64,000 nucleotides of DNA, taken from assembly GCA_964016885.1 (NCBI GenBank), contig CAXHJY010000195.1, positions 1-64,000 of the forward strand, in the 5' to 3' direction. Position 1 is the first letter of the stretch, and every line of letters begins with the position of its first letter. The notes beneath the pieces are model-generated. The model searched no databases, was not told the origin of the DNA, and saw only the letters and a program-made list of their open reading frames with translations. Made by a program: the position numbers and the translations under genes. Source of the DNA: Eledone cirrhosa. Taxonomy: Eukaryota. Of the stretch, positions 46,720-59,447 are shown piece by piece.

Positions 46720-48015
46720 TATTGGCAGTATCGGCAGAGGGTCGGACGCCATGGGTAATTGCTGGCCTTGTGCAAAACGTAGAAACAGTTATTCTATTGA
46801 TATTTCCTACCATGACACAAGTAACCTTAGTTCAGTAGAAACTGTTATTAAGGTCTTCTGGGAGGAATATGGATTTTCTATTAGAATATATACTTTTGTT
46901 TGATTACATAGTATTATATTTATTCGCCATGCTTTGCAGCACAGTTACGTCCCTTTACGGACTGAGTTCAAATCCCGCCGAGGTTAACTTAGCCTTTCAT
47001 CCTTACGGGGTCGATAAAATAAAGTACCAGTAATGCACTGAGATAATTGCTGGCCTTGTGCCAAAAAGTAGAAACAATTATTTATGTGAGTGGATTGGCA
47101 GTATCGGTAGAGGGTCGGACGCCATGCTTTGACGCATAGAGTTACGGCCCTTGCCATTCTGAGTTCAAATCCCGCCGAAATCAAGCCAAGAAATCAAGCC
47201 AGAATCAGTTCCCGTATGGGCAAGACAAGGTCAGCCAACCAGACACTGCCCACAACAGGACAACCCGTCTAACTCATGCTAGCATGGAAGAACGGATGTA
47301 AAAATATGATTTTTGCACTGGGTAATTTCTGGCCTTGTGCCAAACGTAGAAACAATTATATTTATTAATTATATATATATAGAAGAAGAAGAAGAAGATC
47401 TAATTAACAAGTCTGGACAACGTTATTTGTCATAGGGTCGGACGCCATGCTTTCCAGCATAGTTACGTCCCTTTACGATCTGAGTTCAAATCCCGCCGAG
47501 GTTTACTTTGCCTTTCATCCTTACGGGGTCGATAAAATAAAGTACCAGTAATGCACTGGGTAATTGCTGGCCTTGTGCCTAAAGTAGAAACAGTTATTTG
47601 TCATCGGAAAGGGCGGTGGATTGGCAGTATCGGTAGAGGGTCGGACGCCATGCTTTCCAGCATAGTTACGTCCCTTTACGGTCTGAGTTCAAATCCCGCC
47701 GAGGTTCACTTTGCCTTTCATCCTTACGGGGTCGATAAAATAAAGTACCAGTAATGTACTGGGTAATTGCTGGCCTTGTGCCTAAAGTAGAAACAGTTAT
47801 TTGTCATTGGAAAGGGCGGTGGATTGGCAGTATCGGTAGAGGGTCGGACGCCATGCTTTCCAGCATAGTTACGTCCCTTTACGGTCTGAGTTCAAATCCC
47901 GCCGAGGTTCACTTTGCCTTTCATCCTTACGGGATCGATAAAATTAAGTACCAGTAATGTATTGGGTAATTGCTGGCCTTGTGCCTAAAGTAGAAACAGT
48001 TATTTGTTATCGGAA
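46720..48015 (+). mobile_element. SINE family 1 cluster, including a 203-bp-period tandem (47433-48015)
   Basis: Copies at about 46720, 46925, 47088, 47433, 47610 and 47813. Confidence 0.9.
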
Positions 48016-49466
48016 ATTAACAGATTCGCTGAAGTGAATAGAAAGAGAAAATATGATTCGAATCATTTCGCTTGAGGAAGGTTTCTTCTCTGAACACCCT
48101 CTGTTGTCCAACTCTCCTGATATATATATATATTTTTTTTATCACCGTCTTCATTTCAAATTCTTCCGAAGTCAAAATTTTGCGCTTCGTACTTCCGATG
48201 CCGATAAAACAAAGTATCAGTGAAATACTGAGGTCGATGTAACAGTCATTCAAATAGAACATTCTAGATGTGAATGGAATTATAATAGAAGGCTAAGACT
48301 AAAAAAAAAAGGTTTCACCAATATACGCTAGCTACAAAAAGCAATCTGTTCGCCTCAGTACACAGCTTTAGAATATACATTTAACTAACTAATTAACCAA
48401 CAAGACTATCCTCTAGGTAGATTACAATCTTGATATCGTTTATCTGAAGAAAATATCTGATGTTATGGAGTCAATATCGGGCTCTCTATGGCAGGGCTTC
48501 ACCTAATCATAGTAGTTAGCCTAAAAGTCGCCATTTTAGACAGGAAATGCGCCAAAAGTGCGAAGAGCGTTCACTGTTACTTTTCTTTAATCTTTAATGC
48601 TCCCTCTTCCCCCTCTCTCTCTCTTTCTCTTGCTCTCTCTTATTCTCTCTTTCTCTTGCTCTCTCTTATTCTCTCTCTCTCACTCCCCCTCTCTCTCTCT
48701 CTCAGCCTTTCTCTCTCTTACTACCTTTCTCTTTTATCCCCCTCTCTCTCTTCTATCTATCTCTCTTATACACACTCTTTATGTATCTATCTATCTATTT
48801 ATCTTTCTTTCCCTGTTTTTCTTACACTCCCTCCTTCTCTCATTCACTCTCACTCTCACTCCCTGTTTTTCTTATAATCACCCCTTCCCTTGCTCTCTCT
48901 CTCTCACACGCACGCGCACTCTTTCATTTCGTTATTTTCTGCTAAAATATTCTTCTTTCTGTCATTCTGTCCATTTTTCTTTATTTCGTTCTTTCCCACC
49001 TATATTTTCTCTCATTTTTCTTTAACACTCTCTTTTACTCTTTCTTCTAGCCCTCTGTGCTTTCTTCCTTTCTATACCCCCTCTCTCTCATCTCTCACCT
49101 CCCTCTCTCTATCTCTCTCAATCGTGAACATTCTTTCTCCACTTGTTTTCTATTTCCATTTTATCAGCTCCACCACCACCACCAACAAAAACACCACCAC
49201 CAACAAAAAGACCACCACCACCACCAACAAAAAGACCACCACCAACAACAACAACAACAACAAAAACACGACCACGAACAACAACAACAAAAACACCACC
49301 ACCACCAACAACAACAAAAACACCACCGCCACCACCAACAACAAAAACACCATAACCACCACCACTATCATTACAGCCGCCACCTCCACCATCACCACAA
49401 CCACCATGACACCCATCAATACAGCACCACCACCGGCAACACCACCATCGCCACTCCCAGCAACCC

Positions 49467-49689: not shown

Positions 49690-50300
49690 ATTCGAGCAGC
49701 TGTTGTCACGTGTGGAACGGATCCGGCTATTGACCGAATCCATAGTGAATATAACCCCACCGCCTTCTTTTAACTGGGAAGGGCAGGCAGTTTTCCTCTG
49801 TCTGGTGGTGGTAGCGAAAGAGGTTGTGGGATGGACCACGTTGAAAGGACTGAAGACCAATCTCTCATCAACATTTTCAAGTTTCACTTGGAAAGAAAGG
49901 TGAAGGTGGAGAGAGAAGTGCTGCCCTCCAGTACATTTGCTAAAAGATAGGTGAATGTGACAAGAATGACCCGCGTGAATGGGCCTACTCTAAGTATGTG
50001 CCTGTAGGCTAGTTAACTGAAGGAGGAGAGAGATACCCTTCCCAGGTGCCCTCGACGAGTCGGGTGTTTCAGGATTGGTGAGGAACCTGAGTCGACAATG
50101 GGTGGTTCACTCCCCTATAGGGGAATTTATTTTGTTACATTTTTATAAATTTTATTTTTATGTTCTTTCATTGTTAAATCGGTTTTGTTATTGTGTATTT
50201 TCACTCAATTTTATTATAAAACCCCACTGTCTCTGTCTTTGTATTGTCCCCTATATGTCGGCCCTTGTGGCCAATAAATGAAATCATTATTATTATTATT
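49690..50300 (+). mobile_element. Tx1/L1-clade LINE 3' fragment
   Basis: EQLLSRVERIRLLTESIVNITPPPSF...GQAVFLCLVVVAKEVVGWTTLKGLKT is homologous to the 57887-58831 product; ends AATAAA...(ATT)n. Confidence 0.85.
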
Positions 50301-50306
50301 TGATAA

Positions 50307-50700
50307 TGGCGGTGGATTGGCAGTATTGGTAGAGGGTCGGACGCCATGCTTTGCAGCATAGAGTTACGGCACTTTATGGTCTGAGTTCAAATCCCGCTGA
50401 GGGTAACTTTGCCTTTCATCCTTACGGAGTCGGTTAAACAAAGTACCAGTAACGCACTGGGTCGATTTATTCGACTTTCCTCTCCTCCAACATTGTTAGC
50501 CATGTGCATAAATTAGAATTGGCAGTATCGGTAGAGGGTCGGACGCCATGTTCTCCAGTATAGTTACGTCCCTTTACGGTCTGAGTTCAAATCCCTTCGA
50601 GGTTCACTTTGCCTTTTATCCTTACGGGGTCGATAAAATAAAGTACCAGTAATGCACTGGGTAATTGCTGGCCTTGTCCGAAAAAGTAGAAAGAATTATT
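50307..50700 (+). mobile_element. Two tandem SINE family 1 copies directly after the LINE (ATT)n tail
   Basis: Consensus matches at 50307-50520 and 50517-50700. Confidence 0.85.
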
Positions 50701-51099
50701 TATAATGCTCAGATTCTTAGGTCTGTGGCTTGGCAGAATTGGTAGAGCGTCGTACACTATGATGGTGGTGGCGGTGGTGTTGGTGGTGATCGTGATGATG
50801 GTAGTGGTGGGGGAACCATCTACAACAGGCTCAAAGACTTACAAACACGCAAATACACATAGACATATGCATACAGATGCACACACATGCACGTATACAT
50901 AATATATGCATACTCACACATATGCACTCACACAGACAGACTTACACATACAATATACAAGCATTTCGACATATTTGTGTATAGCTATTTAACCCCAGGT
51001 CGGCACTGATAGAGCAAACATAGGACGAAAGGCCTTCCAGCCATGACTATCCTGACCTATCGTGACTACATACTTAAAAGTGCTCTTCCACCCACCCAC

Positions 51100-51130
<31 letters not shown>

Positions 51131-51202
51131 CATTATGAAGAGAGAAGAAACATTTAGATATAATTAGTAATAAAATGTATCATACCTAAACTGCTCCTAA
51201 AT

Positions 51203-51292
51203 TCCTCGACTACGTAGTTTCGTGGCATAAACAAAAACAATATATCATAAAGATATAGAGTCCTTGCGAGGTCTGCCGACTTATCAAGAGGA
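51203..51292 (-). ncRNA. Type I hammerhead, U3-A8 variant core
   Basis: Reverse complement of 52627-52716. Confidence 0.8.
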
Positions 51293-51797
51293 TACCTCAT
51301 TTTACTAGTCTCAAGAACGCGTCTACACGACGTGAGAAAGAATCCCAAAAGGCGGAGGGGGAGATAGTCACGCGATATAACGGTCGAGAAACAGAGCTAA
51401 GCCTCTTATAACCCCGAAGAAAATACCACGGAGGCGGAGGGGGTATTTATATCGAGGCCGTAGAAGAGGTGGTGAAGAAGGCGAGAAGTATGAGTAATGG
51501 AAGCTTTCCAGCTGTCCCCACACTTCAAAGATTGCTCGACCAGAGGGAGTTATTAACAATATATTTAGAAACACACAGATACATGCGGACACACACATAT
51601 ATACATGAATGCATCCGCACCCAACTGTGAGTTAAGGGTGCCAACTTCACCGATGTTGCTCAATGAATGACTGGGACAGACCAATTCAGTTGAACTAGAC
51701 TGAACCAGTATCAGAGTTAAAAATACATTATGAAGAGAGAAGAAACATTTAGATATAATTAGTAATAAAATGTATCATACCTAAACTGCTCCTAAAT

Positions 51798-51887
51798 TCC
51801 TCGACTACGTAGTTTCGTGGCATAAACAAAAACAATATATCATAAAGATATAGAGTCCTTGCGAGGTCTGCCGACTTATCAAGAGGA
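51798..51887 (-). ncRNA. Type I hammerhead, U3-A8 variant core
   Basis: Identical motif 595 bp from the previous copy. Confidence 0.8.
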
Positions 51888-52626
51888 TACCTCATTTTAC
51901 TAGTCTCAAGAACGCGTCTACACGACGTGAGAAAGAATCCCAAAAGGCGGAGGGGGAGATAGTCACGCGATATAACGGTCGAGAAACAGAGCTAAGCCTC
52001 TTATAACCCCGAAGAAAATACCACGGAGGCGGAGGGGGTATTTATATCGAGGCCGTAGAAGAGGTGGTGAAGAAGGCGAGAAGTATGAGTAATGGAAGCT
52101 TTCCAGCTGTCCCCACACTTCAAAGATTGCTCGACCAGAGGGAGTTATTAACAATATATTTAGAAACACACAGATACATGCGGACACACACATATATACA
52201 TGAATGCATCCGCACCCAACAGTGAGTTAAGGGTGCCAACTTCACCGATGTTGCTCAATGAATGACTGGGACAGACCAATTCAGTTGAACTAGACTGAAC
52301 CAGTATCAGAGTTAAAAATACATTATGAAGAGAGAAGAAACATTTAGATATAATTAGTAATAAAATGTATCATACCTATTGGTGGTATTTTCTTCGGGGT
52401 TATAAGAGGCTTAGCTCTGTTTCTCGACCGTTATATCGCGAGAAGAAACATTTAGATATAATTAGTAATAAAATGTATCATACCTATTGGTGGTATTTTC
52501 TTCGGGGTTATAAGAGGCTTAGCTCTGTTTCTCGACCGTTATATCGCGTGACTATCTCCCCCTCCGCCTTTTGGGATTCTTTCTCACGTCGTGTAGACGC
52601 GTTCTTGAGACTAGTAAAATGAGGTA

Positions 52627-52716
52627 TCCTCTTGATAAGTCGGCAGACCTCGCAAGGACTCTATATCTTTATGATATATTGTTTTTGTTTATGCCACGAA
52701 ACTACGTAGTCGAGGA
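52627..52716 (+). ncRNA. Type I hammerhead, U3-A8 variant core
   Basis: UCCUC-UUGAUAA-GUcGGCA...UGCCAC-GAAA-CUACGUAG-UC^GAGGA. Confidence 0.8.
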
Positions 52717-53221
52717 ATTTAGGAGCAGTTTAGGTATGATACATTTTATTACTAATTATATCTAAATGTTTCTTCTCTCTTCATAATGTATTTTTAACTC
52801 TGATACTGGTTCAGTCTAGTTCAACTGAATTGGTCTGTCCCAGTCATTCATTGAGCAACATCGGTGAAGTTGGCACCCTTAACTCACAGTTGGGTGCGGA
52901 TGCATTCATGTATATATGTGTGTGTCCGCATGTATCTGTGTGTTTCTAAATATATTGTTAGTAACTCCCTCTGGTCGAGCAATCTTTGAAGTGTGGGGAC
53001 AGCTGGAAAGCTTCCATTACTCATACTTCTCGCCTTCTTCACCACCTCTTCTACGGCCTCGATATAAATACCCCCTCCGCCTCCGTGGTATTTTCTTCGG
53101 GGTTATAAGAGGCTTAGCTCTGTTTCTCGACCGTTATATCGCGTGACTATCTCCCCCTCCGCCTTTTGGGATTCTTTCTCACGTCGTGTAGACGCGTTCT
53201 TGAGACTAGTAAAATGAGGTA

Positions 53222-53311
53222 TCCTCTTCATAAGTCGGCAGACCCCGCAAGGACTCTATATCTTTATGATATATTGTTTTTGTTTATGCCACGAAACTAC
53301 GTAGTCGAGGA
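53222..53311 (+). ncRNA. Hammerhead copy with a core mutation (UUCAUAA, G5C), probably inactive
   Basis: Same as 52627-52716 except G to C at 53229 and one change in the stem II insert. Confidence 0.7.
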
Positions 53312-53552
53312 ATTTAGGAGCAGTTTAGGTATGATACATTTTATTACTAATTATATCTAAATGTTTCTTCTCTTTTCATAATGTATTTTTAACTCTGATA
53401 CTGGTTCAGTCTAGTTCAACTGAATTGGTCTGTCCCAGTCATTCATTGAGCAACATCGGTGAAGTTGGCACCCTTAACTCACAGTTGGGTGCGGATGCAT
53501 TCATGTATATATGTGTGTGTCCGCATGTATCTGTGTGTTTCTAAATATATTG

Positions 53553-53638
<86 letters not shown>

Positions 53639-54564
53639 TTAAAACAATGAAATTAAACACAAAACTGTTAATTCATAGTAAAACATTATTTTACGATCGT
53701 TTCTGGGGGGGGGGGGTAGTCGTCTGCATGTTCATTTAATTATTGATCTATGTAAAACATATTACAAAATATCATGGTGAGAAAATAATACATACGTCTT
53801 CACTGCCCGCCGTCTTCAGAAATATATATATATATATGTATAAACACATACACATACCAACACATATAACACAGTACCCATCAGAAATGACGGGGTTTAT
53901 AGTAAAAAGTATTTAATTTAATAATTCCTTGATACAACATTCTATGTGAAAACACTTGAATCTTCGAGTTTTCCTTGACCTCAATCTAGCGTTCTAACAC
54001 ATCTGCTGCACTGACACTGGCGTATTGGGCCTCTTAACAAACCTAAAGTCATATCAACTTTGTAATGCCCCGTCTCCCTACCGCTTTATTTACGTTCGAA
54101 CCCCCTGATGCTCTAACGGCTCCAGATCTTGGCGGTAATAGTAAAAATAGTGGTTTTGAATTTAAATAGTGCGATTTCGAACAAACGTGGTCGAAACATA
54201 TTTTTAAGAAATGTAGAAATGCTGTAAAACTCTCAACGTCATACTCCGCACGAAACTGCATCATTTAAGGTAAGGAAGAAAACTCTAACCCCTTCATTCT
54301 TTTCCTGAGTGTTCTCAACCTCCAAGGAACATGATCTTATCCTCCGAATCATTGACGTACTGAGGAAATTTTACATAAGGATCTTAAAAACATACACGAG
54401 TTTTTAATTACGTAGATTGTTGAGGAACCATCCTGTCCTCTGCCGGGACCACCAGGCAGACTGACCCTTTCATTTATAGTGGTGGCATATGGCGTAAGTT
54501 TACTTAAACTTTAGTAACATATTGAGATTAAAATTCCAAGACTTCTACTTGTAGAATTATGATT

Positions 54565-54745
54565 TTGGCAGTATCGGTTGAGGGTCGGACGCCATGCTTT
54601 GCAACATCGAGTTACCGCCCTTTAGAGTCTGAGTTAAAATCCCACCGAGGTTAACTTTGCCTTTCATCCTTACGGTGTCGATAAAATAAAGCACCAGTAA
54701 TGCACTAGGATAATTGCTGGCCTTGTGCCAAAAGAAGAAACTATT
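54565..54745 (+). mobile_element. SINE family 1
   Basis: Consensus match. Confidence 0.85.
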
Positions 54746-54877
54746 ATATTTTAAATAGTCTTTATAATGTTCCTATAGTCCCTGAATGTTTAGATTCTTT
54801 CCTGTAGCTTCATCAGTGTGATCATCGTTTACGATTAAATATCTAAGTGTAATGTAACTAGTATTTAAAAGTAATGG

Positions 54878-55270
54878 GTGTTGTTATGACCGAAAGAATT
54901 ACGATCGCGAATACAAGCGGCCGAAATGGGGTTCCTCCGAAGGCCCTTTGGAATAACGCTACACGATACAGTGCGTAGCTCGGAGATCAGAAAGTCGCTC
55001 CAGGTAGAGCCATTACTTCTCCGAATTGAGAGATCACAGTTCCAATACTACGGACAAGTGGTTAGAATCGGTGAACAGAATCGCTGGAGAGATTTTACAG
55101 GCAAAACCAGCTAGCAGGAGATCAAGGGGTAGCAGAGCCCGAGAAAGAACATTGGATAACATCCATGATCTTGGCTGGTCTAGTTTGGGTATCTAGTCGG
55201 ATCAGTTGGAGACGCTACTTCTGACAGGACCCGCTAGTAGGAGTGTTTGAGGACTCTGCCCCAAGAAGAA
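54878..55270 (+). pseudogene. RTE-clade LINE ORF C-terminal fragment
   Basis: RSRIQAAEMGFLRR.FGITLHDTVRSSEIRKSLQVEPLLLRIERSQFQYYGQVVR. Confidence 0.85.
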
Positions 55271-57391: not shown

Positions 57392-57580
57392 TAATTTTCT
57401 ACTTTTTATCACAAGGCCAGCAATTACCCAGTGCATTACTGGTACTTTATTTTATCGACCCCGTAAGGATGAAAGGCAAAGTTAACCTCGTCGGGATTTG
57501 AACTCAGAATGGCAAGGGCCGTAACTCTATGCGTCAAAGTATGGCGTCCGACCCTCTACCGATACTGCCAGTCCACCGCC
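57392..57580 (-). mobile_element. SINE family 1 adjacent to a LINE tail
   Basis: Consensus match. Confidence 0.9.
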
Positions 57581-57587
57581 TTTTTGA

Positions 57588-59070
57588 ATAATAATAATAA
57601 TAATGATAATAATAATAATAATAATGGTTTCTTTATTGGCCACAAGGGTAACACGAAGAAAAACATTAGAGACGGCACAGAACTGTACAGGACGATACAA
57701 AGTAGGTTTTGGTCGTGTAAACAGGTTATAACAAAATCGGGCTAGAAATCAAAAAAATTCAAACAACAAAAATTCCCCCAAAAGGGGGAAACCTCCGAGG
57801 GTCACTCGAGGCGAAAACCACACAAAAAACACCACGGCCACCCTGACAAGGGCAAGCGCCCTCTCTCAGTTTTCCCATTGCTCAGTCTACAGGCGCATAC
57901 TCAGAGCGGGTATGTTCACTCGGACCAGACTCGCCACTTTCACCCACCTTTCAACAAACTTACTAAAAGACAGCACTTGCCTCTCCACCCTGATTTTCCT
58001 CTTAAAGTGAAACTTGAAAAAGTTAATCCGGGATTGGCCGAAGAGGAAAGTGTCCGTCTTCAACCCTTTCAACCTTGTCCACCACACAATCCCTTTCGCC
58101 ATGGCCACCAAGCAGATGAAAACTGCCTGCCCTTCCTCCTCTTTAAAGGAGGATGGCGGGGTTATCTGCACAATGGACTCAATCGATAACCGGATCCGTC
58201 CTACACGTGACAGCAGCTGTTCGACATAGCTCCACAATTCAGCAATCCTCGGGCACTGAACGAGTGCGTGCAGGACGGTTTTGTCGCCCTGCGCGCATCT
58301 CGGACAGGCTCGGCTGACAGCACCTCCGTGCCTGTAGAGCTTATCCTGAACCGGCAACGATCTCCGGTAGCACTGCCAAGACAGGGATTTCTGGAAGTTG
58401 TCCATAGGCCCCGGTTTGAAAGTTCTCTTGAAGAGAGCGAACAGCTGATCGTCTTTGACACCCTGGGTCTCCCCGAGAACGTCGTCGCTCTTTCCTTCCA
58501 CCAGCCCTCTATAGAACGCCGAGGTGGATGTTCCACCGATACTAGTGCCCAGCTGGTAGGGGGTGGTGAGCGCTTGGAGACATTCTAGCTTCCAACCGCT
58601 ATCCCTCGGTCTTTTCCTGATCCAGGACTGTAGCTCCGTCAAGGAGACGAGCTGGGGAAAAGCGCGTCTGGCAAACGGCGACCACACCTGTTCACCGTCA
58701 AGGAAGCACCAGAGATGTCGCAGCCTCAGCGCATGTTTGCGCATCATCATCCACGGCATGCCTAGTCTTCCACGCAACGGGTGTTGGCAGCAAATTGATC
58801 GTCTGACCATGGGAGCACGTCCCTTCCACAAAAAGCGGAAGAGTTGGGTGGGGGGAAAGGTACGACGGTCAGGCGGTAGTAGATGACGGACGCTATGTAC
58901 GCATTCACCACCTCATCCAGACCTTTCAGAGACAGCCTCCTCTCGGCCCATTTCTGGGTGAGAGAGGCCACCCTGCTCGTCACCTCGCTCCAGTTTTTCT
59001 CCATCTGGAGGTCCGGACCGAACCAGACCCCGAGCAATTTAACCGGTACATTTGTGACAGGTACATAAAG
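57588..59070 (-). mobile_element. 5'-truncated Tx1/L1-clade LINE (RT thumb, zf-RVT-like CCHC, 3' UTR, (ATT)n tail)
   Basis: VKLLGVWFG...WAERRLSLKG, RGRLGMP and CPRCAQGDKTVLHALVQCP motifs; frameshift near 58860. Confidence 0.9.
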
Positions 59071-59121
59071 CGACTTACTGGAAGCGAGCAAAAAAACGTC
59101 CGATCAGACCAATAATAATAA

Positions 59122-59302
59122 TAATTGTTTCTACTTTTGGCACAAGGCCAACAATTACCCAGTACATTACTGGTACTTTATTTTATTGACCCCGTCATGA
59201 TGAAAGGCAAAGTTAACCTCAACGGGATTTGAACTCAGAATGGCAAGGGCCGTAACTCTATGCGTCAAAGCATGGCGTCCGACCCTCTACCGATACTGCC
59301 AA
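59122..59302 (-). mobile_element. SINE family 1 within (AAT)n
   Basis: Consensus match; CCAATAATAATAATAAT occurs on both sides. Confidence 0.9.
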
Positions 59303-59447
59303 TAATAATAATAATAATGATGATAATGATAATGATCTGTGTAATATCAATATGATAGAGGGGACATAGTGTATTGAACTGGGTATGAGATCAACAGTTA
59401 ATGATTATTGAATTCAAAGATATCTCAGTGAGAAGGTCGGCTTCATA

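Follow-up and report, generated by a model that had tools for sequence, protein, structure and literature searches.

A high-copy, non-coding 595-nt repeat with a U3-A8 hammerhead core in Eledone cirrhosa: inverted arms, two paired fixed ends and a probable Penelope-like mode of insertion

In the window, a 64,000-nt stretch of DNA from Eledone cirrhosa (contig CAXHJY010000195.1, positions 1 to 64,000), a non-coding 595-nt repeat has probably inserted recently. The repeat carries a U3-A8 hammerhead motif, is present in high copy number and likely belongs to the non-autonomous Penelope-like elements, as a non-LTR retrozyme. Copies are dispersed through the genome in (TA)n, mostly as two head-to-head arms with 3' ends at two fixed sites, and many sequence variants are common to all units of an insert. 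Transcripts of such an element would self-cleave to a monomer, which would likely circularise and likely be copied into (TA)n from the two fixed sites by a borrowed Penelope-type enzyme.

The locus in the window consists of two arms, of 2.1 and 1.8 units, facing head to head and set in (TA)n (Table 1). The first-pass annotation had described tandem units. The period of 595 nt and the near-identity of the units (>99%) are borne out, but the arrangement is not a plain tandem, as the arms are inverted and the junction carries a 108-nt duplication. The arms are not identical to each other, differing at several bases. The minus-strand interval put forward earlier as a 595-nt monomer lies exactly between the two cut sites of the left arm. 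There is no RT and GIY-YIG reading frame between the repeats, as the units abut directly and contain no long ORF; the longest open frame in an arm is 87 codons from stop to stop, and the longest started by ATG encodes 76 aa. No tRNA gene was found in 50000-55000.

Table 1. Features of the 595-nt repeat insert in the window (unit numbering: position 1 = 52490)
Feature	Position	Strand	Remark
(TA)n target microsatellite, left flank	51104..51127	none	From the sequence; copies generally have TA flanks
Left arm, 2.1 units (unit positions 242-595, 1-595, 1-302); 3' end at fixed site A	51128..52378	-	
Hammerhead motif, intact U3-A8 core	51203..51292	-	
Hammerhead motif, intact U3-A8 core	51798..51887	-	
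Predicted 595-nt monomer between the two left-arm cut sites	51208..51802	-	Fold z=-7.0; putative release
5'-to-5' inversion junction	52379..52489	none	Spans 108-nt duplication: 52332-52440 again at 52440-52548
Right arm, 1.8 units (1-595, 1-469); 3' end at fixed site B	52490..53553	+	
Hammerhead motif, intact U3-A8 core, palindromic stem III, predicted cut after 52711	52627..52716	+	
Predicted 14-bp hairpin extending stem II	52652..52688	+	One-sided (wobble) changes preserve the pairs in the different subfamilies
Site A read through inside unit, about +80 from cut	52785..52791	+	Fixed 3' end in other copies
Site B read through inside unit, about +245	52954..52960	+	Second fixed 3' end in other copies
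TATA-like box, then CCCCTCCGCC box; possible internal promoter, speculative	53063..53081	+	Motif alone
Hammerhead motif with G5C (53229), predicted inactive	53222..53311	+	
(TA)n target microsatellite, right flank	53554..53634	none	From the sequence

Four type I hammerhead motifs are present at a spacing of 595 nt. The claim that every unit carries a UUGAUAA hammerhead is correct for three of the four, which read TCCTC-TTGATAA-GTCGGCA-46 nt-TGCCAC-GAAA-CTACGTAG-TC^GAGGA (as RNA, UCCUC-UUGAUAA-GUCGGCA-46 nt-UGCCAC-GAAA-CUACGUAG-UC^GAGGA). The fourth, the outer motif of the right arm, reads TTCATAA in place of the core; among 198 segments sampled, one had this G5C variant. As in type I hammerheads, three stems surround the core and a GAAA box and an NUH triplet are present, but UUGAUAA stands in place of the canonical CUGANGA box. 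As had been foreseen, a CUGANGA search misses the family. The Rfam hammerhead model, suggested as a check, also misses it, with no hammerhead hit at E values of up to 10. The pattern tried for a C3-G8 version of the motif had no match in the genome.

Stem II does contain an insert of the size first noted (about 45 nt, in fact 46 nt), which is better described as a predicted 14-bp hairpin prolonging the stem. Stem III is a 10-nt palindrome, for which a duplex between copies of -12.9 kcal/mol is predicted. The predicted active fold lies 1.1 kcal/mol above the minimum. Against shuffled sequences, the whole monomer folds with the z-score given in Table 1 and the ribozyme region by itself with z=-2.25; in the wider context of 52600-52740, stem I is absent from the predicted fold. 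In 17 hand-picked copies, 92% of cells are paired and the pairing is lost on sliding, but covariation in the same copies, including the stem II extension, did not exceed that of shuffles. The core and stems are identical between copies that are only 74% alike overall. Judged from its sequence, the U3-A8 motif is likely to be self-cleaving.

A strict motif pattern gave 6,961 exact matches in the 3.0-Gb genome and the reversed control none, in agreement with the original proposal of a retrozyme-like non-coding family with a conserved, compensated core. As the first 100 matches listed form 50 clusters, the total corresponds to a rough estimate of 3,500 inserts. The best-scoring copies are 98-100% identical. 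The natural monomer is 595 nt long in 54/88 cases and 591 nt in 16/88, and whole arrays have common length variants of 591, 590, 588 and 565 nt. Up to five motifs occur consecutively on one arm (locus L109). An older subfamily, of 72-84% identity, has an unchanged core and unchanged stems. This conservation among genomic copies had been set beforehand as a test by the first-pass annotation, which also asked whether the unit ever occurs as free multimers; it does.

Like non-LTR retrozymes, the family has non-coding tandem units, at least two in a row, each with one type I hammerhead, dispersed at high copy number. Like non-autonomous Penelope-like elements, it has partial tandems, 5' truncation, an inverted 5' copy, a tail at one end and a microsatellite target; target-site duplications are unreadable because the inserts lie inside (TA)n. 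The family is best classed as a non-autonomous Penelope-like element of the retrozyme type, young and high in copy number, whose rare core is already known. The first reading overlooked three features that tie the element to Penelope-like retrotransposition: the inversion of the arms, the TA target and the pairing of two fixed ends.

None of the six sequencing runs listed as containing the unit is an RNA run, which is evidence neither way on expression. Two of these runs (X4 and X6), from two other studies and under other organism labels, each contain one contig of 620-621 nt, at a depth of about 8, whose sequence makes a single circuit of a 591-type unit. These contigs would fit an RNA circle as well as a relative or trace DNA, and they are not counted as a circle because a collapsed tandem from trace DNA gives an equal picture.

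Inherited variants, taken here as those common to all units of an insert, avoid the ribozyme. None of 95 distinct inherited variants falls in the 13 core positions, and one falls in the 43 core and stem positions, where about seven are expected (p=0.006). With single-unit variants as the control (17/277 events), the same depletion is borderline (Fisher p=0.052). The bulged base of stem II, which was left out of the stem count, does vary.

To define the insertion ends, 149 clusters were mapped and 34 were dropped (at a locus edge or duplicated), leaving 115 that were complete and distinct. Two more were removed, one with the architecture of its neighbour (L089, neighbour L086) and one comprising two adjoining inserts (L111), and 113 inserts were scored. 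The loci had been chosen by best score or by motif presence, which favours long arms. Over 100 loci carry dispersed short arrays with fixed 3' ends, variable 5' ends and their own flanks and junctions. The 3' ends lie at one of two sites, separated by about 167 nt, A (unit 296-304, about +80 from the cut) and B (unit 462-473, about +245), and nearly always run into TA repeats.

The main family comprises 84 of the scored inserts, 52 two-armed and 32 one-armed. Among the two-armed inserts, 49 have one end at A and the other at B, one is A+A and two have an off-site end; the lone A+A insert lacks a TA run at its right end and may be interrupted. A+B pairing is therefore seen in 49 of the 50 inserts having both ends on site (p=9e-14 against 0.5). 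The one-armed inserts end at A in 15 cases, at B in 13 and elsewhere in four. In the older subfamily (29 inserts, mostly retrieved with a query covering B and to that extent biased), the 19 two-armed inserts comprise 14 A+B, one B+B and four with an off-site end. The sole B+B insert (L133:811-1723) has site A altered in both arms and resembles a natural test of a site A mutant.

At the junctions, 34/49 overlap by 1-9 nt. Neither arm is contained in the other in 17/49 inserts, and both arms exceed one unit in 13/49. The 5' ends show no pile-up at the cut site (3/124, p=0.40); the next 30 nt hold 12/124 (p=0.02), a mild excess that is not taken as a finding. Seven 5' ends map to the second CCCCTCCGCC box, the boxes in the window being at 52559-52568 and 53072-53081. 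A 508-nt unit (L123:973-1730) seemingly arose by deletion between two CCCCTCCGCC boxes.

A long hairpin is predicted immediately 5' of each fixed end, in the main family as well as the older one (52712-52790 and 52895-52950 in the window). On the folding models these hairpins are a possible enzyme-binding module, and the pattern is not clearly present in the coding families folded. Pairing of sites A and B in one helix was also considered and is unsupported: it is predicted, with a probability of 0.97, for the local main-family fold, but the helix is absent from the predictions for the older subfamily, for most whole monomers and for four coding families.

The distribution of variants within inserts bears on the template. 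In a sample of 80 inserts of at least 94% identity, units diverge by 0.56 per 100 nt within an arm and by 0.57 between opposite arms, against 2.13 between inserts. In the 42 inserts where at least three units overlap, the variants divide into 101 common to every unit, 15 missing from a single unit, 3 present in some units and 129 confined to one. In L109, private variants are present in all 7-8 covering units, on both arms. Variants in all units imply a one-unit bottleneck at some stage of the lineage, for which the simplest account is a circle that was copied round repeatedly, starting at both ends. The pattern favours twin priming on one monomer template, likely circular, as the origin of an insert, and a homogeneous parent array outwith the sample could also be the source of variants common to all units. 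Thirty-five single-unit variants recur in other inserts and could be inherited mosaics. No indels were found at the cut site in about 211 segments, and these clean columns, together with the lack of a 5' pile-up, argue against jumps between linear monomers. A linear monomer was rejected as template on the latter ground, and arms that each exceed one unit cannot be yielded by one pass over a linear monomer.

Under the Penelope-like retrozyme explanation, which we consider probable, transcripts of tandem units would be cleaved after GUC, probably in a dimer formed via the palindromic stem III, and the monomer would be ligated. A Penelope-like RT/GIY-YIG enzyme, itself probably a dimer, would cut both (TA)n strands, and one end would prime at site A and the other at site B on one template. 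Each copy would run round the template, for up to about five turns, and the two cDNA ends would join, mostly via microhomology of 1-9 nt. A one-armed insert would be the outcome if a single end primes. Tentatively, and at somewhat less than even chances, twin priming may be obligately asymmetric, a dimeric Penelope-type enzyme acting on one circular retrozyme RNA such that one DNA end always starts from A and the other from B, both rolling round the circle. In L1 elements, 5' inversions arise by twin priming, in which two target-strand primers act on one RNA and the inverted arms are joined by microhomology; the 595-nt inserts differ in having two fixed start sites and arms that cover partly the same sequence.

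An explanation that we regard as unlikely, though the strongest of the rivals, keeps a non-autonomous Penelope-like element and the two priming sites but takes an uncut multimeric transcript as template (or a linear monomer with template jumps), the hammerhead being weak or acting at another step. Uncleaved RNA is reported as the main substrate of a reconstituted system in vitro (PMC11167929), one of nine Xenopus retrozyme dimers was cleaved in vitro and eight were not (bioRxiv 10.64898/2026.07.22.740005), and clean cut-site columns without a 5' pile-up fit uncut RNA as well as a circle. The recurrent single-unit variants, if inherited mosaics, would fit it also. However, the great excess of variants in all units over those in all but one or some would require a one-unit bottleneck, and entire arrays with common length variants also argue against it. 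The inverted arm could instead be formed by self-priming or fold-back, as in the model for rotifer Penelope elements (PMC3846280), with site B or A a DNA resolution site and no second RNA priming site. Fold-back at the junction would be near perfect in a few inserts: both arms start at one position (loop 0) in 3/49 and within 25 nt in 7, some arm starts near the unit boundary being approximate in this scoring. Most of the others would need loops of 70-560 nt, apart from those in which neither arm is contained in the other, and the one-armed ends are about equally divided between A and B. Trimming before joining could hide containment, but fold-back seems to us quite improbable.

The least credible explanation, and one that is largely refuted, is a satellite that spread as DNA and whose resemblance to a hammerhead is a decayed remnant or a coincidence, or else a fold-back artefact of the assembly at the locus. 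The absence of an Rfam match and the departure of the core from CUGANGA are in its favour, as is the position of the window at the start of a high-numbered contig (C222). Against it stand the many loci with fixed 3' ends, variable 5' ends and their own flanks and junctions, the unchanged core and stems at 74% overall likeness, and the base differences between the window arms. In addition, both ends recur in one sequencing run (X1), which may be the assembly's own sample, as loose ends into AT repeats at 52790-52791 (A) and 52955 (B).

A helper was sought among coding Penelope-like elements of the genome by means of a GIY-YIG scan (150 scored of 10,597 candidates), from which 30 loci and 28 larger stretches were examined. 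None of the coding elements in the roughly eight Penelope-like families sampled resembles the unit at the nucleotide level, and searches that started from three other families likewise gave no such element. Shuffle z-scores between the unit and coding families are at most 4.6 and may stem from AT-rich sequence. The two sequences matched by a short-stem II pattern both proved to be copies of the unit with deletions.

Three coding Penelope-like families in the genome use a U3-A8 core; the clade names are presumably Neptune and Nematis. One, represented by L101 (G000:C1:145868500-145877000) and L173-L252, is a very young coding family with a period of 4,979 nt and copies 98-100% alike. It encodes RT and GIY-YIG domains in one frame, has a U3-A8 hammerhead in both repeats and is inserted in TA targets; 67 scored copies have 98-100% protein identity. 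Its inserts have two fixed ends, at +82 and +150 (68 nt apart), and by our own reading 11 of 13 two-armed inserts have one end of each, five inserts having been retrieved with a query covering the longer end. This family is a candidate for in vitro work. A second coding family (L313-L342, e.g. L315:901-1910) has a UUGAGAA core and a palindromic stem III, with about 160 nt between its two ends, and its endonuclease is one that we take to be of the Nematis type.

Other Penelope-like families (L103, L218 and L108) also have one short and one long end on opposite arms, with a 38-nt tail in L103 and L218, and such pairing may be general among Penelope-like families. At L119:311-1275, the 5' end of an older unit adjoins, head to head, a truncated arm of another coding family with a canonical core. 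This single case may be a mixed-arm insertion or a nested event; no such junction was present in 29 further copies of that coding family. At L386:290-2960, nine tandem 311-nt units, each with a canonical CUGAUGA hammerhead motif, and an inverted copy form an array of a second, ordinary retrozyme-like family.

The family was thought at first to be perhaps undescribed; its U3-A8 core is already in print, and the coding families above use it too. Natural U3-A8 hammerheads have been reported, with cited in vitro activity (PMC3088659), and U3-A8 occurs in about 1,300 Schistosoma Penelope-type hammerheads, which have a long bulged helix II, a palindromic helix III and low activity in vitro; circles were proposed there as templates for more-than-unit copies (PMC4209133). 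The Eledone motif shares with these published hammerheads the U3-A8 pair (found in Schistosoma Cercyon), the long bulged helix II, a short helix I and a short palindromic helix III that suits dimers. The published motifs differ in being mostly single or in the pLTRs of coding elements, whereas the Eledone units form free non-coding multimers.

Non-LTR retrozymes were defined with circles of 170-400 nt (Cervera and de la Pena 2020, PMC7229834) and are described as non-autonomous Penelope derivatives of 51-972 bp (Li et al. 2026, bioRxiv 10.64898/2026.07.22.740005). The earlier remark that the unit is longer than usual retrozymes does not hold against the latter range, within which 595 nt falls. 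Metazoan non-LTR retrozymes are similar in their non-coding tandem units with one type I hammerhead each, low GC, thousands of copies, strongly self-paired monomer and coding Penelope-like elements alongside. In contrast, the Eledone unit has a U3-A8 core and a 46-nt, hairpin-extended stem II and is longer than the 170-400 nt RNAs. Its inserts are mostly two-armed with fixed paired ends; the word 'inverted' is absent from the main text of PMC7229834.

In PMC8557442 and PMC3846280, Penelope-like elements are described with an inverted 5' copy, a tail of 30-40 bp that is often one-ended, microsatellite targets and a self-priming model. In the reconstituted system, a predicted dimer cuts both strands and starts at two internal sites bounding the tail, the start site has no strand bias and ribozyme cleavage is dispensable for insertion (PMC11167929). 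The 595-nt inserts resemble the endonuclease-bearing elements of these three papers in their 5'-truncated partial tandems, inverted 5'-end copy, tail at one end, two initiation sites bounding the tail and AT-rich or (TA)n target. They differ in that the tail is about 167 nt instead of 30-40 nt, the unit has no ORF, and the pairing of a short and a long end is near-obligate, where the published descriptions call it 'optional'. Searches of openly accessible papers gave no account of the 595-nt family, of near-obligate end pairing or of variants extending across both arms; the family may be listed in supplementary files of the papers cited. The ribozyme variant and the element class are already known, and the insertion anatomy is the less ordinary part.

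The origin of inverted and tandem inserts, the nature of the tail and the place of retrozyme circles as intermediates are presented as open questions in PMC8557442, PMC11167929 and bioRxiv 10.64898/2026.07.22.740005. With thousands of near-identical, short, ORF-free inserts and start sites separated widely enough for scoring by eye, a very young family brings these questions within reach of counting and of a small in vitro assay, and the young coding Penelope-like families in the same genome add to this. If correct, asymmetric twin priming would explain the inverted pLTR, one-sided tail and tandems of Penelope-like elements in one step, and would be genomic evidence for retrozyme circles as a template for reverse transcription. 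Surveys of retrozymes that rely on Rfam or on a CUGANGA search can overlook a family that numbers thousands of copies.

Elsewhere in the window, a repeat of about 200 nt, which we take to resemble a cephalopod SINE, is present in many copies, some of them tandem (46898-48042, 50300-50737, 54560-54747, 57404-57588, 59120-59303 and 13830-14358). In addition, a 341-codon open frame lies outside simple repeats at 57887-58912 on the minus strand.
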